DNA of 64,000 nt from a virus (Duplodnaviria > Caudoviricetes). The notes beneath the pieces are model-generated. The model searched no databases. It was not told the origin of the DNA and saw nothing but the letters and a program-made list of their open reading frames with translations. The stretch lies in IMG/VR virus record IMGVR_UViG_3300023108_000002, one strand, 5' to 3'. Shown here piece by piece: positions 1,403 through 39,546 of this stretch. How positions within the stretch are numbered: position 1 is the first letter of the stretch; every line of letters begins with the position of its first letter. The translations under genes were made by a program, and so were the position numbers.

Positions 1403-1420
1403 TTATATATAGTATAGGAT

Positions 1421-1510
1421 CGTGGATTCCTTCACGCTTTGCGGTAAAATCCACTTGGTGCTCATTAGAGGCCAATTTCAAAACCTTGCTTAATAGGAGG
1501 AAAAAACATG
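1421..1510 (+). promoter_or_regulatory. ROSE-like RNA thermometer in the hsp20 5' UTR
   Basis: Three hairpins; the last, CCTTGCT-TAAT-AGGAGG (1484-1500), pairs a U(U/C)GCU motif with the SD and leaves a bulged G. Confidence 0.75.
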
Positions 1511-3223: not shown

Positions 3224-5755
3224 ATGCGTTTTTATACTAATGTACAAAATATTGGAAACAAAATTCTTGTTAGAGAATATAACAATGGTGAACGAAAAAA
3301 ATTAAGGTTAGATTATAAACCATCTTTATTTTTTGAAACAAAAGACAGAACATCAAAATATAAATCTCTTGATGGAAAAAATCTAAAAAAAGTAACATTT
3401 TCGGCCATTAACGAAGCAAGAAGTAAGATGCGAGAAGTCGAAGGACTGTCTCCTATTTACGGAATGACGCCTTTTATCTATCCATTTATATCTGATACTT
3501 ATAATGATATGGAATTTGATATTGATAAAATCAATATCGCAACACTTGATATTGAGGTTGAATGTGAACAGGGATTTCCAGAACCAGCAGCTGCGGCTGA
3601 ACGAGTGAATGCTATTACTTTAAAATATAATGGACTTTATACAGTTCTTGGTCTTGGAGATTGGGAACATAAAACTCCAGAAGTCGAACATCTGAATATC
3701 AAATATTACAAATGTACAAGTGAAATGGAACTTCTACGTTCATTTCTGAATTTGTGGGAGTCTGCTGATATTGATATTGTAACTGGATGGAATGTAAACT
3801 CTTTCGATATATTATATCTTGTAAATAGAATTACTAAAATCTTGGGCGAAGAACAGATGAAACGTCTGTCACCTTGGCGTTCTGTAAACAAAGTTCAAAA
3901 AAATATTAGAGGACAACTTACAGAACATGTTCAGCTACTTGGATTAAACATTATTGATTATCTTGACTTGTATAGAAAATTTACATATGTCACCAGAGAA
4001 TCTTATCGATTAGACCATATTGCATTTGTTGAACTTGGCCAAAGAAAACTTGACCACTCTGAATTTTCATCGATGCATCTATTTTATAAGATGGACTATC
4101 AGAAATATATAGATTATAACATCATTGATGTTGAACTTGTCGATAGACTTGAAGATAAACTAAAATTGTTGGAACTTCTCATTACTATTGCATATCAGGC
4201 AAAGGTTAATTATGATGAAGTTTTTTCTCCAATCAAAACATGGGACTCGATTGCGTTTAATCTTCTAAGACGAAACAAGATAGTAATTCCACCAAAAACA
4301 ATAAGTCAAAAGACTGAGGCCTATGCCGGTGCATATGTAAAAGATCCAATTGTTGGAATGCATGATTGGGTCATGTCTTTTGATTTGAATAGTTTGTATC
4401 CACATCTTATCATGCAATATAATATCTCACCAGAAACATTAGTTGAAACAGATCGTGTTGATACAAATGTAAATACTTTGTTAGAGAAAGGAACGGACAC
4501 AGAAGCATGTCAACAATATGGATATTCTCTCACACCAAATGGCGTTCTTTATGATAATTCAAAAAAAGGATTTCTTCCAAAATTGATGCAAGGTATGTAT
4601 GATGACCGTGTACAATATAAGAAAGAAATGTTAAAATGTAAACAGAGAAAGATTGACGGCGACGGCGATCCAGTGGAATTAGATAAGAAAATCGCCGCAC
4701 TAAACAACAAACAAATGGCAGCAAAAATTCTTCTCAATTCAGCTTATGGTGCGTTAGGAAATCAATATTTTAGATATTTTGATATTAGACAGGCTGAGTC
4801 GATTACTTTATCTGGTCAACTAAGTATTCGTTGGATTGAGAAAAAAGTAAACGAATACATGAACAAGGTATTAGGAAATGAAGAACAGAAAGAATATGTC
4901 ATTGCAAGCGATACAGATTCGATATATGTTGTTTTTGGTGACTTGGTACAAAGAGTGTTTGGAAAAGGAGATTCGATATCGGAGAGTGATGGTGGTATAC
5001 AAACCGAGCGAGTGGTATCATTTCTTGATAGAGTTGCTCAGGAGAAATTGGAACCTTTTATTGATAAGGCTTATAAAGAACTTGCTGAATATATGAATGC
5101 ATATGACCAAAAGATGGTAATGGCTAGAGAGGTGATTGCATCAAAGGGTTTGTGGACTGCGAAGAAGAGATATATCTTAAATGTTCATGATAACGAAGGA
5201 GTCAGATATAAAACCCCAGAACTAAAAATTATGGGTATTGAGGCTGTTCGTTCTTCAACTCCGGCTGCGTGTAGAGATAAACTAAGAGAATCCTTTAAAG
5301 TTATAATGAAGGGTGATAATGATGAGTTGATTGAGTTTATTGATAAATTTAGAGAAGAATTTAAAACAATGGATGTACCAGACATTTCTTTTCCAAGAAG
5401 TGTTAATGGCCTAAAGAAATACTTTGATTCGAAAGATTTATATACAAAAGGCACACCAATTCATGTGAAAGGTGTGATTCATTATAATAATTTGGTGCAA
5501 AAACACAAACTTGGAATGTCTTATCCTTTAATTAAGGAAGGCGAAAAGATTAAGTTTGTATATTTGAAAGAGCCAAATCCGATAGGAAACAATACAATTG
5601 CAATTCAAGATTCTTTACCAGAAGAATTTGACTTGCATCGATATATTGACTACAACAAACAATTTGAAAAGGCGTTTCTTGACCCTATTCAAACTATCAC
5701 AGACACAATTGGTTGGAAAACTGAAAAAATATTTACAATTGATGACTTTTTTTAA
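3224..5755 (+). CDS. gp43: family B DNA polymerase
   Basis: Exo motifs LDIEVEC and GWNVNSFD; Pol motifs SFDLNSLYPHLI, KILLNSAYGALGN, ASDTDS; KKRY. Confidence 0.98.
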   Translation: MRFYTNVQNIGNKILVREYNNGERKKLRLDYKPSLFFETKDRTSKYKSLDGKNLKKVTFSAINEARSKMREVEGLSPIYGMTPFIYPFISDTYNDMEFDIDKINIATLDIEVECEQGFPEPAAAAERVNAITLKYNGLYTVLGLGDWEHKTPEVEHLNIKYYKCTSEMELLRSFLNLWESADIDIVTGWNVNSFDILYLVNRITKILGEEQMKRLSPWRSVNKVQKNIRGQLTEHVQLLGLNIIDYLDLYRKFTYVTRESYRLDHIAFVELGQRKLDHSEFSSMHLFYKMDYQKYIDYNIIDVELVDRLEDKLKLLELLITIAYQAKVNYDEVFSPIKTWDSIAFNLLRRNKIVIPPKTISQKTEAYAGAYVKDPIVGMHDWVMSFDLNSLYPHLIMQYNISPETLVETDRVDTNVNTLLEKGTDTEACQQYGYSLTPNGVLYDNSKKGFLPKLMQGMYDDRVQYKKEMLKCKQRKIDGDGDPVELDKKIAALNNKQMAAKILLNSAYGALGNQYFRYFDIRQAESITLSGQLSIRWIEKKVNEYMNKVLGNEEQKEYVIASDTDSIYVVFGDLVQRVFGKGDSISESDGGIQTERVVSFLDRVAQEKLEPFIDKAYKELAEYMNAYDQKMVMAREVIASKGLWTAKKRYILNVHDNEGVRYKTPELKIMGIEAVRSSTPAACRDKLRESFKVIMKGDNDELIEFIDKFREEFKTMDVPDISFPRSVNGLKKYFDSKDLYTKGTPIHVKGVIHYNNLVQKHKLGMSYPLIKEGEKIKFVYLKEPNPIGNNTIAIQDSLPEEFDLHRYIDYNKQFEKAFLDPIQTITDTIGWKTEKIFTIDDFF

Positions 5756-36450: not shown

Positions 36451-38202
36451 TTAAAATGTAATAGATCCTGATTGAGTAAATTGATATATATTATATGATC
36501 CGTCCGTAGTAATTGTTGGAGAGCCTGTAGTTGAGGTGGCGGTGTCAATTGAGCGAATGATTACAATACCATCTGCACCCGCTGTTGGCGTTCCGTGATT
36601 TGGCACCGCGCCGCCACCAGAGCCACCACCCCCCGAACCCGTATTTGGCGTGGGGCTACCCGCTGCACCCGTTCCGGCACCACCGTTTCCTCCAACACCA
36701 GATCCACCAGCTGCGTTGCCGGCCGTGTTGTATGTGCCACCGCCGCCACCCCCAGCATAGTAAAGTGCGGTTCCAGTTATACTATTTTGAAGACCTGCGC
36801 CTCCAGCACCTCCGATACTGCCAGCATTTGCACCAGCCCCGCCAGCGCCACCACCACCACCAGCATGGTATGGAGCGGATGTATGGCCTACGCCGCCATC
36901 GTTACCCTGTCCAACTGTGCCTGTTCCCGCTGTTACTCCATTATGTCCACCCCCGCCGCCAGATCCACCATCCAGAGCGGCGCCGGTTGTCCCTCCCCCA
37001 CCACCACCAATAGCTGTTATTGTATTGAATGCTGTGCCGGAAATAGAACTATCGAGGCCGTTTGAACCTGGCGCTGATTGACCATTCCCGGCCGCCCCAC
37101 CAGTTCCAACAACAATATTGTATGTAGTACCAATATTTAATGTTTGATTTGTAGAATAGATATAGCCGCCAGCACCGCCACCGCCGCCGTGACGCATACC
37201 TCCACCACCACCACCACCGACTACTAGATAATCAACGGTACTAATAAATGCCAATGAAAGAGTGCAAAATCGGGTTGTGGTTTTTGCGCCATCACTGGCA
37301 CTTAATCTGACCTTTACGCTTCCAGCATCAGCAATATTTGTAGATGGAGTAAAAGTATATACTCCATTTGAATCTACAGATGCGGCACTCGACAGTAAGC
37401 TTGGCAAAGTATTGTTTGTTGTTCCATAAACAATACCATATGATATATCAAATCCTTCTGGGTCTTCCGCAACCATTGTAACTGTACTTGTGGTTCCATT
37501 ACTATTAAGAGTGTGTGTTGTTGGTGGTTCAGTAATAATTATAGGACTTTCATCATTTCCAGAAGATATTCTATCCCATTCGGTTCCATCCCATACATAT
37601 AATGCTTTGGTATCTTGTGCAAATGCGAAGTCACCTTCTGTAGTTCCATTTGCAAATGCAGCAAAGTTTGCATATGCAGTGACTGAAGAACCAGCTGCTC
37701 CCGCAGCCCCATCTGCACCATCCACTCCAAGAGGATTTGTTGCAACCCATTGTGCGCTTGAACCATCATCATAGTATACATATGTTTTTAAGTTTGCAGA
37801 ATTGAACCACAAATCTCCGCTAGATGCGCCGCTTGGTGCTGTATCAGAGACACTATGTCTTGTTAGATTTGATGCTGTCGGTTGATGAAAGACAATATCA
37901 ACTTCATCTGATAGTGACAATGCAGTATCAAAAGTGATAGAGGTTCCGCTTGTAGCTGTCACATCTTGTGGGTTTAACATAACACCATTTACTGACACAA
38001 TAACTGCTGCGGCCGGATCGTAGTTTACATTATGAACTGTTTGTCCTGCCGTTGCAACAAATGTGGAACGAGAAGTAGAGGCAACAATCTGCTCTTGTTT
38101 TTTGACTAGCCAATAACCTCTTGTGGAGTCAAAAACAAAGATTTGTCCATTTTCTGTATGAGTTTGTCCATTCACAGGACTTGCTGGAAATGATATGGCC
38201 AT
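36451..38202 (-). CDS. fibre/adhesin with C-terminal glycine-rich domain
   Basis: MAISFPASP N-module; VDYLVVGGGGGGG...GGGGAGG...DGIVIIR glycine-rich domain. Confidence 0.8.
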   Translation of the reverse strand: MAISFPASPVNGQTHTENGQIFVFDSTRGYWLVKKQEQIVASTSRSTFVATAGQTVHNVNYDPAAAVIVSVNGVMLNPQDVTATSGTSITFDTALSLSDEVDIVFHQPTASNLTRHSVSDTAPSGASSGDLWFNSANLKTYVYYDDGSSAQWVATNPLGVDGADGAAGAAGSSVTAYANFAAFANGTTEGDFAFAQDTKALYVWDGTEWDRISSGNDESPIIITEPPTTHTLNSNGTTSTVTMVAEDPEGFDISYGIVYGTTNNTLPSLLSSAASVDSNGVYTFTPSTNIADAGSVKVRLSASDGAKTTTRFCTLSLAFISTVDYLVVGGGGGGGMRHGGGGGAGGYIYSTNQTLNIGTTYNIVVGTGGAAGNGQSAPGSNGLDSSISGTAFNTITAIGGGGGGTTGAALDGGSGGGGGHNGVTAGTGTVGQGNDGGVGHTSAPYHAGGGGGAGGAGANAGSIGGAGGAGLQNSITGTALYYAGGGGGGTYNTAGNAAGGSGVGGNGGAGTGAAGSPTPNTGSGGGGSGGGAVPNHGTPTAGADGIVIIRSIDTATSTTGSPTITTDGSYNIYQFTQSGSITF

Positions 38203-38229: not shown

Positions 38230-38243
38230 TATTTATATAAATA
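38230..38243. promoter_or_regulatory. overlapping divergent T4-type late promoters
   Basis: Perfect palindrome TATTTATATAAATA containing TATAAATA on both strands, between divergent genes 38202(-) and 38275(+). Confidence 0.8.
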
Positions 38244-38274: not shown

Positions 38275-39546
38275 ATGATACTATCTGTAACTTTATTATT
38301 GGTCGCGATTGCATTATCTGTAGTCGCTGCATATTACTCCATTGCTGGATTGATTACAATCTTTGCAGCGGCAGTAATGCCAGTAATTGTTATGGCTTCT
38401 GTTTTAGAAGTTGCCAAGGTTTTAACGGCTGCTTGGTTGTCGCATAATTGGAAAAGAGTTAACTTTTTTCTAAAATCATACTTGACTCTTGCAGTTATTG
38501 TACTTATGTTTATAACCAGTTTAGGTATATTTGGATTTCTATCAAAGGCACATATTGAACAAACTGCTGGAAATAGAGAAAATGTTGCTCAAATTGAGAT
38601 TGTAGAAAAGAATATTGCAAGATTAGAAGAGTCTATTAATGAGTATGAACTTCAAATTGAAAAGATAGAAAATTCTGATATGAATAAGAATGCTGAAATC
38701 AATTCTGAAATATCAAAAGAAGAGAGCAGAGTCGAATCTGCAATTCGAAACTATCAATTATTAGTTGATGAACAAAATGAAATAATCTCATCCGCAAGTA
38801 AAAAACTAGAACTGATTGAAAAGTATATTGAAGAGAATGATATTGTTTCTTTGCAGGCGCTTGTTGGTACAACTCCAGACGGAAGATATGGACCAAATAC
38901 TGCATCAAAAGTAAATGACTTTAGAGAGAAAGAAGAGGATCGTGTAGATACAATAATTTCATCTGCAAGAATTCGTATTAATGATTTGAGAGATTTGCAA
39001 GCAGCAGAAAGAACTCAAAGTAATGAGTTAATTGATAGACTTCGTAGTAAAATAAAACTGGATGAATTGGATGAAAAAGATCGTGAAAGAATTGAAAATT
39101 TAAAGCAAAAAATTATTGACACAGAGAATGATTTGGGTGTATTAAGGAATGATAAATTTGAATTCGAAAAGGAAGTAAGAAAAATAGAAGCCGAAGTGGG
39201 ACCAGTAAAATATGTCGCAGAAGTACTTTATGATAATGTAGATGAAGATATACTTGAGGATGCTGTCAGATTTGTGATTTTATGTTTAATTTTTGTTTTT
39301 GACCCACTTGCAATTCTTTTGGTTATTGCTAGCACATCATCAATAGTATATTATAGAGAAATTAAAAAGGGAACAAATCTTACACATTTATCCGAAAAGG
39401 ATTTTGAACAAGAAAGTGTTATTCCGCCACTTGGAATGGATATGTTAAAACCTAGAACGGAAGAAATAAAAAAAAAGCCTAACTTCAACGATCCGATTGA
39501 GAGATGGACAGAAGAGAGACTTGAAGACCACATTAGATTAGAATAG
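38275..39546 (+). CDS. membrane protein with long coiled coil and a peptidoglycan-binding-like motif
   Basis: About 3 N-terminal TM helices, heptad-rich middle, LQALVGTTPDGRYGPNT, C-terminal TM. Confidence 0.75.
   Translation: MILSVTLLLVAIALSVVAAYYSIAGLITIFAAAVMPVIVMASVLEVAKVLTAAWLSHNWKRVNFFLKSYLTLAVIVLMFITSLGIFGFLSKAHIEQTAGNRENVAQIEIVEKNIARLEESINEYELQIEKIENSDMNKNAEINSEISKEESRVESAIRNYQLLVDEQNEIISSASKKLELIEKYIEENDIVSLQALVGTTPDGRYGPNTASKVNDFREKEEDRVDTIISSARIRINDLRDLQAAERTQSNELIDRLRSKIKLDELDEKDRERIENLKQKIIDTENDLGVLRNDKFEFEKEVRKIEAEVGPVKYVAEVLYDNVDEDILEDAVRFVILCLIFVFDPLAILLVIASTSSIVYYREIKKGTNLTHLSEKDFEQESVIPPLGMDMLKPRTEEIKKKPNFNDPIERWTEERLEDHIRLE

Follow-up and report, generated by a model that had tools for sequence, protein, structure and literature searches.

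Genome setting of hsp20

Does a virus that carries a small heat-shock gene control it by an RNA of the kind that serves bacteria as a thermometer? The question arises from the short sequence upstream of hsp20 in an uncultured T4-like phage of about 204 kb, whose record (IMGVR_UViG_3300023108_000002) comprises 203,815 bases and is complete by CheckV; the window, i.e. the whole stretch of DNA analyzed here, is a part of this record with a length of 64,000 nucleotides. By its predicted pairing, the Shine-Dalgarno (SD) sequence of the phage hsp20 gene is sequestered in the same type of bulged-G hairpin as in bacterial thermometers, and many related phages keep this leader.

T4-like replication genes occupy the left end of the window. 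The genes for the clamp-loader protein gp62 (211-636) and for RegA (639-1028) are followed by mazG, which encodes a MazG/PRA-PH pyrophosphohydrolase (1028-1402), by hsp20 on the plus strand (1508-1966) and, further downstream, by the gene for a family-B DNA polymerase (3224-5755) that is about 52% identical to the polymerases of cyanomyophages. The product of hsp20 is an IbpA-like small heat-shock protein of 152 amino acids (Pfam HSP20, 7e-20), which shares 47-49% identity with Salmonella IbpA. RegA was also considered as a regulator of the hsp20 leader, and no specific support for this role was found.

Directly after hsp20 lies a gene for a protein of 61 amino acids (2015-2200) that matches Pfam Hc1 (2e-11), the chlamydial histone H1-like protein; a DNA-compacting protein of this kind is unusual in a phage. 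A G+C-rich stem-loop of 11 pairs was listed among the inverted repeats at 1973-1997 on the plus strand, 7 nt past the hsp20 stop codon. No T-run follows it on this strand, a T-run being present on the minus strand only, and the structure may represent the 3' end of the hsp20 transcript, a stabilizer of the transcript or a terminator of minus-strand transcription. When positions 1000-2300 were compared with cultured phages by blastn, the mazG portion was the sole part to give a match. Contigs that match the hsp20 region (1100-2300) with at least 99% identity were recovered in metatranscriptome libraries of salt-marsh, freshwater and aquatic origin, produced by several studies.

Architecture of the leader

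The gap between mazG and hsp20 measures 105 nt and contains a box resembling a T4-type late promoter (TATATATA, 1404-1411, plus strand), two 5' hairpins and a third hairpin that includes the SD; the leader proper (1412-1507) lies directly 5' of the HSP20 open reading frame. An earlier note on this DNA, which had read the region as a ROSE-type RNA thermometer, had listed these elements, and every one of them was recovered to the base. Hairpin 1 (1422-1454, plus strand) consists of an outer stem, GUGGAUU (1422-1428) with AAUCCAC (1448-1454), and an inner stem, CGC (1435-1437) with GCG (1441-1443). It is immediately followed by hairpin 2 (1455-1475, plus strand), which reads UUGGU, G1460 and CUC, then the loop AUUA and GAGGCCAA, with U1459 opposite G1471 in a U.G pair, G1460 bulged and an inner CUC/GAG stem. 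This second hairpin is the counterpart of hairpin I of the Rfam family ROSE_3.

A single-stranded, A/U-rich spacer (1476-1483, plus strand) leads to the SD hairpin (1484-1500, plus strand); such a spacer is present in all relatives, variable in length and mostly A/U-rich. In the SD hairpin, the last of the three, the anti-SD sequence CCUUGCU (1484-1490) is followed by the loop UAAU (1491-1494) and by the SD itself, AGGAGG (1495-1500), which forms the 3' arm. The motif UUGCU occupies 1486-1490, and the pairs are C-G, C-G, U-A, U.G (U1487 with G1497), the bulged G1488, C-G and U-A; G1488 remains unpaired in the sole register that joins CUU and C to GGAG. The AUG at 1508 follows the SD at a distance of 7 nt. 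In isolation the SD hairpin has a calculated dG37 of -3.0 kcal/mol, compared with -4.6 kcal/mol for that of Salmonella ibpA in the same calculation.

Hairpin 2 and the SD hairpin carry the same triad of a U.G pair, a bulged G and a C-G pair (1459-1461/1470-1471 and 1487-1489/1496-1497, respectively). In hairpin 2 the triad is kept in nearly all relatives and also occurs in hairpin I of the ROSE_3 consensus. The ROSE core motif thus appears to be present twice in the leader, but only once over an SD.

A putative late promoter

T4 late promoters start transcription about 6 nt past the box. By this rule, transcription of the hsp20 leader would be predicted to begin around G1417, at or just before hairpin 1. 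Among 45 distinct leaders of related phages, described below, 38 have a TATA(A/T)ATA box, and in 29 of these leaders 5-8 nt separate the end of the box from the core of the first hairpin; for the clade of the window, the distance from the end of the box to hairpin 1 is 10-12 nt. It is the placement of the box, not its count across the window, that is informative: with 12 copies against 12.5 expected, the motif TATAWATA shows no enrichment in the window. Seven of nine boxes of the TATA(A/T)ATA type in the window lie no more than 100 nt upstream of a correctly oriented open reading frame, and several of the reading frames downstream of such boxes carry Gly-rich or Ig-like domains. Domains of these kinds are seen in phage structural proteins.

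The box upstream of hsp20 is TATATATA and not the T4-type TATAAATA, and the late promoter proposed from the single sequence is a putative one, its support being the conservation of the box at a fixed spacing in relatives. Fifteen metatranscriptome runs hold the stretch in the form of contigs, which are no proof of transcription; two of the contigs cross the gap between mazG and hsp20 and two end near 1349-1389, which is neutral with respect to a start at about 1417. Elsewhere in the window, two overlapping TATAAATA boxes on opposite strands were found at 38230-38243, between divergent open reading frames (36451-38202 on the minus strand, with a Gly-rich domain, and 38275-39546 on the plus strand). 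This arrangement looks like a divergent pair of late promoters.

Conservation and covariation among related phages

The single copy in the window is within chance, and the case for the leader is carried by the comparison with relatives. The pattern CTTGC-N3-10-GGAG is expected to occur by chance 1.66 times per window of such composition, and the region 1412-1515 folds no better than shuffled sequences (MFE z-score of -0.80); moreover, the MFE structure at 37°C is a long-range fold that differs from the hairpin model of the earlier note. The poor fold of the single sequence is not counter-evidence to the hairpin model, however, because the model is supported by covariation. Once the ATG is included, the full pattern occurs a single time in the genome of 203.8 kb, and a covariance model derived from the relatives (R2) likewise has a single match in this genome, located at the leader (49.8 bits, E 6.5e-10).

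With the Hsp20 protein as query, viral contigs yielded 80 loci with 41-100% identity to the protein of the window, and these loci correspond to the 45 distinct leaders. All 45 contain CUU(G/A)C, 5-10 further bases and GGAG just 5' of the start codon, and in all 45 a G+C-rich hairpin lies further upstream; its 5' arm has one bulged purine, and its inner stem reads CC.../...GG. In nearly all of the leaders, folding with ViennaRNA gave the same pair of 3' hairpins, each containing one bulged base. The sequence CUUGC is present in every distinct leader but one, which has CUUAC, at a mean column identity of the leaders of 56-58%. Among 50 leaders compared, CUUGC was found in 46, CUCGC in three (all from cyanophages) and CUUAC in one; the bulged position opposite the SD is a G in 49 of the 50 and an A in the remaining one.

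With the raw MAFFT alignment of the 45 leaders, in which the 3' arms had been misplaced, RNAalifold predicted no pairs at all. A covariance model was built from nine seed sequences and 40 leaders were realigned with it; in the resulting alignment (A5), 97.8% of the cells are paired, and 8 of the 14 pairs have undergone compensatory changes. Its covariation score is 0.372, as compared to 0.127 for shuffled alignments (none of 500 reached the observed value) and to at most 0.077 when the partners were slid. The helix of A5 that corresponds to hairpin 2 is 98.4% paired, and six of its eight pairs show compensatory changes. Since A5 was fitted to the structure and thus favours it, the SD helix was retested without an alignment, anchored on CUUGC and GGAG in the 50 leaders. 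The lower of the two pairs flanking the SD core is C-G in 30 leaders, U-A in 13, A-U in one and unpaired in six, and the upper one is U-A in 33, A-U in 13 and unpaired in four; both flanking pairs beat all 10,000 shuffles. The four core pairs are invariant and therefore uninformative on pairing. On the Hsp20 tree, each flanking pair amounts to about two independent contrasts, all of them concordant and too few for significance in a sign test.

Hairpin 1 is confined to the clade of the window. In a plain MAFFT alignment of eight distinct members of this clade (A7), all seven outer pairs are 100% paired and five of them show compensatory changes. As far as the comparison of sequences goes, these data establish hairpins 1 and 2 as selected structures and the CUUGCU/SD helix as a conserved pairing. 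The check on related phage hsp20 leaders that the earlier note had proposed thus came out in its favour, the UUGCU-type pairing with the SD being kept and its flanking pairs covarying.

Within hairpin 1, conservation across the clade is higher in the internal loop than in the stems; the 5' side of the loop reads UUCC(U/A)UC (1427-1433) and the 3' side GUAAAA (1444-1449). The UUCCUUC of this loop is complementary over its full length to the SD region GGAGGAA, with a mismatch in the subclade of locus L011 (UUCCAUC), and may act as a second anti-SD or as a site for protein binding. In two relatives, the TATA box is separated from the conserved hairpin by an additional, unrelated 5' hairpin, which is CAGGC...GCCUG in one (approximately at L066:1380-1412) and GCAGAC...GUCUGC in the other (approximately at L067:1385-1416). 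Both relatives sit in clades with two hairpins, and as each gained an extra one, forms with three hairpins arose more than once.

Relation to the ROSE families

ROSE-like elements as a class are characterized by two to four hairpins, an SD imperfectly paired with U(U/C)GCU, and a bulged G (PMC11182007). On the basis of its predicted pairing, the phage leader has all of these features that can be read from sequence. The architecture originally claimed for it is borne out: a 5' leader of a small heat-shock gene with three hairpins, an anti-SD with a bulged G, a covarying family, and ROSE_3 as the best Rfam family.

The comparison with the Rfam models themselves (ROSE, RF00435; ROSE_2, RF01832; ROSE_3, RF02523, with a gathering score of 43 bits) bore out the assignment in part: ROSE_3 is the top family and matches at the right place, but no ROSE model reaches its gathering score. 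A search of the whole window at gathering thresholds gave no match to Rfam. With lax settings, ROSE_3 aligned to 1455-1513 in the right architecture at 14.2 bits (E 0.88), below the cut-off of 43, whereas the ROSE and ROSE_2 models had no match in 1380-1540 at E values up to 10; the leader of Salmonella ibpA, our positive control, scored 95.2 bits with ROSE_2. No other Rfam family scores higher than ROSE_3 at the leader, and this holds not only for the window but also for 6 of 20 uncultured relatives and for four records of cultured or single-cell phages. The scores of these relatives range from 19 to 34.1 bits, all below 43, with the phage Melnitz (34.1) and the loci L068 (32.5) and L059 (32.3) as the best. 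The validated ROSE_2 element of Salmonella ibpA scores about 21 bits on ROSE_3, which indicates that sub-threshold scores are normal between accepted ROSE families. By this yardstick, the distance between the phage leaders and ROSE_3 is similar to that between two accepted ROSE families. In addition, hairpin I of the ROSE_3 consensus (..GAU[G]CCGAAgUCGGGUC..) is almost identical in sequence to the phage hairpin and shares its U.G pair and bulged G. In the reverse direction, R2 had no match at the ibpA leader of Salmonella and a weak one (14.9 bits) in the gap between ibpA and ibpB.

Distribution and host

The R2 leader precedes hsp20 in the cultured Synechococcus and Prochlorococcus phages Syn1, S-CREM1 and P-SSM2, where it has the CUCGCU variant, in the OM43 phage Melnitz (55 bits) and in Pseudomonas phage 30-2. 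Among the seven phage hsp20 records examined from the phages collection, the only one without the leader is that of Vibrio phage PWH3a-P1 (L087, NC_020863.1), whose Hsp20 is 32% identical to that of the window and whose hsp20 leader contains neither an R2 match nor a CUUGC-SD motif. The leader also precedes hsp20 homologs on contigs of bacterial metagenome-assembled genomes. On the chromosome of a member of candidate division WOR-3 (CP070705.1, L097:231-288), R2 scores 33.6 bits just 5' of an hsp20 homolog, with CUCGCU opposite AGGAG; judged by these features, this site is a ROSE-like leader outside the Proteobacteria.

It had been suggested from the sequence that a ROSE element hints at a proteobacterial host. 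This hint finds no support, because the same leader is found in cyanophages and on the WOR-3 chromosome and is thus not diagnostic of such a host. No psbA gene is present in the complete genome of 204 kb, which argues weakly against a cyanobacterial host. Together with the habitats of the libraries, the absence of psbA suggests an estuarine or freshwater phage with a non-cyanobacterial host.

Possible temperature sensing and competing explanations

We regard it as fairly probable (about 0.6) that the leader is a ROSE-like translational control element which is transcribed from a T4-type late promoter and senses temperature by melting of its SD helix. Transcription from TATATATA would set in at about 1417, and the mRNA would begin a few bases before hairpin 1. 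Hairpins 1 and 2 would scaffold or stabilize the RNA, by analogy to hairpin I of Pseudomonas ibpA. Pairing of CUUGCU with AGGAGG (C-G, U-A, U.G, bulged G, C-G) would produce a weak helix of about -3 kcal/mol at 37°C, which at low temperature would limit binding of the 30S subunit, by analogy to validated ROSE-like RNA thermometers, and which would melt on warming. More Hsp20 would then be made without any need for the host sigma-32, late phage transcription replacing sigma-32 control. A possible second input would be free Hsp20, which might bind the leader and add a second layer of repression.

Calculated melting does not discriminate between the readings considered here, since it also fails on a validated thermometer. 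For isolated SD hairpins, half opening is predicted at 39-75°C, with 66°C for the window and 70°C for Salmonella ibpA. For full leaders, the median probability that the SD is unpaired rises in the family from 0.38 at 10°C to 0.57 at 40°C, while in the nearest-neighbour ensembles of the window it rises unsteadily and shows no clear opening; the validated ibpA element of Salmonella stays closed in the same calculation (0.03 to 0.06). The ensembles of the window favour other folds, in which the distal UUCCUUC pairs with the SD or AACC pairs with GGUU at the AUG. The former, long-range pairing is the predicted MFE structure at 37°C, and its calculated weight increases as the temperature rises. At 10-30°C, the preferred alternative register pairs AACC (1482-1485) with GGUU (1510-1513) and 1475-1479 with 1516-1520 in the coding region, by which the start codon would be hidden. 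AUGGUU and AAACC are invariant within the clade of the window; other clades start with AUGAC, so this pairing is not general. The habitats, salt marsh and fresh water, may have only modest temperature swings, which would count against a thermometer.

IbpA proteins of E. coli, Cedecea and Vibrio repress translation via their own ROSE-like 5' UTRs, and this self-repression needs Y34, R93, R97 and K98, with R93 being irreplaceable (PMC10474464). The phage leader might thus act mainly as an operator at which free oligomers of Hsp20 block translation, until unfolded or aggregating proteins titrate Hsp20 during virion assembly; the leader would then be a sensor of aggregation and not a thermometer. 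We consider this unlikely, yet it is a live rival because the residues required in IbpA are mostly conserved. The Hsp20 of the window has Y36, R94 and R98 at the positions of Y34, R93 and R97, and among 50 phage Hsp20 proteins the first position is aromatic in all, the second is Arg in 46 and the third is basic in 48; IbpB, which lacks self-repression activity, has Gln at the R93 position. The bulged-G motif of hairpin 2 and the internal loop of hairpin 1 are conserved beyond the needs of a stem, which would suit a protein-binding site. On the other hand, the position of K98 is basic in only about 5 of the 50 proteins (T99 in the window), and K98A abolished repression in E. coli (PMC10474464). 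Since thermosensing and self-repression coexist in E. coli, self-repression may be an added layer rather than a replacement.

A constitutive role is less probable still. The 5' hairpins would shield the late mRNA against decay that depends on the 5' end, the SD hairpin would set translation at a fixed, moderate level, and the likeness to ROSE would be inherited from bacterial ibpA as the source of the gene. In most relatives, the predicted transcription start coincides with the first hairpin or lies just 5' of it; this agrees with such a role, as do the stabilizing function proposed for hairpin I of Pseudomonas (PMC3669281) and the small shift of the calculated SD accessibility between 10 and 40°C, although this measure is the very one that fails on Salmonella ibpA. 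A mere attenuator, however, has no need of an invariant CUUGC with a bulged purine across proteins that are as little as about 41% identical, while neighbouring stems vary freely. That the resemblance to ROSE arose by chance and has no function is highly improbable: the lone motif and its fold energy would be compatible with chance, but not the conservation and the compensatory changes in 45 distinct leaders, the occurrence in cultured phages, and the single site for R2 in the genome.

Besides control by melting of the SD helix, which we prefer, a combined model can be put forward tentatively. The phage lineage may have kept a dual sensor, in which temperature, through melting of the SD hairpin, and the level of free Hsp20 would together gate Hsp20 synthesis. 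Hsp20 would bind via the arginine equivalent to R93, perhaps to the copy of the triad in hairpin 2. Being transcribed only late and from a phage promoter, such a sensor would be uncoupled from the host sigma-32, and if this model is true, chaperone supply follows the folding load of virion assembly. As phages of cyanobacteria, OM43, Pseudomonas and other hosts carry the leader, a dual sensor would also place a regulatory RNA in hosts for which no ROSE element has been described.

Significance

Few host-like genes are as common in marine T4-like phages as hsp20, which was found in 508 records of cultured phages. If the leader acts like its bacterial relatives, abundant viruses tune their own chaperone post-transcriptionally and independently of the heat-shock sigma factor of the host, and late infection would respond directly to temperature or to the load of protein folding. 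The leader may also be of interest as a short natural regulatory part that, from its distribution, appears to work across very different hosts. Particular to the window are the form with three hairpins, a hairpin 1 that covaries and has a conserved internal loop, and the comparison of the residues required for self-repression.

Comparison with known systems

Searches limited to open-access papers and preprints turned up neither a ROSE-like element in a phage nor an RNA thermometer on a hsp20 gene of a phage, in agreement with the statement of the earlier note that no phage ROSE had been characterized. Phage RNA thermometers counted in a paper of 2024 are lambda cIII, which acts by alternative structures, and SPbeta blyA and a sigma-70 element in a gut Caudoviricetes phage, both of which act by fourU pairing (PMC11182007). 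Like the leader analyzed here, these three are phage-borne, cis-acting RNAs, and they gate ribosome access with temperature; unlike it, none of them is ROSE-like and none is located on a chaperone gene.

The enterobacterial ibpA elements of E. coli and Salmonella (ROSE_2) resemble the phage leader in the gene family they precede, in the anti-SD (CUCGCU/CUUGCU), in the bulged G and in the stability of the SD hairpin. They differ from it in their 5' hairpins and in the basic residue of their proteins at the K98 position, and the ROSE_2 model does not match the window.

The closest parallel is the ROSE_3 element of Pseudomonas ibpA (Krajewski et al. 2013, PMC3669281). Both are leaders of an ibpA-type small heat-shock gene; in both, a stable, G+C-rich 5' hairpin with the bulged-G motif AU[G]CC(G)...(C)GGGU is followed by an A/U-rich spacer and a short 3' hairpin, in which U(U/C)GCU faces the SD around a bulged G, and the AUG is unpaired. 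In the two-hairpin elements of Pseudomonas, the SD hairpin alone confers thermoregulation, whereas hairpin I stays folded on heating and has been proposed to function in folding or mRNA stability (PMC3669281). The leader of the window has an extra 5' hairpin, three in total, and the pairs flanking the SD core, which are G-C in Pseudomonas, are C-G below and U-A above. Finally, ibpA of Pseudomonas is a heat-shock gene of the host, whereas the leader described here is encoded by a phage and lies behind a TATA(A/T)ATA box that resembles a late promoter.
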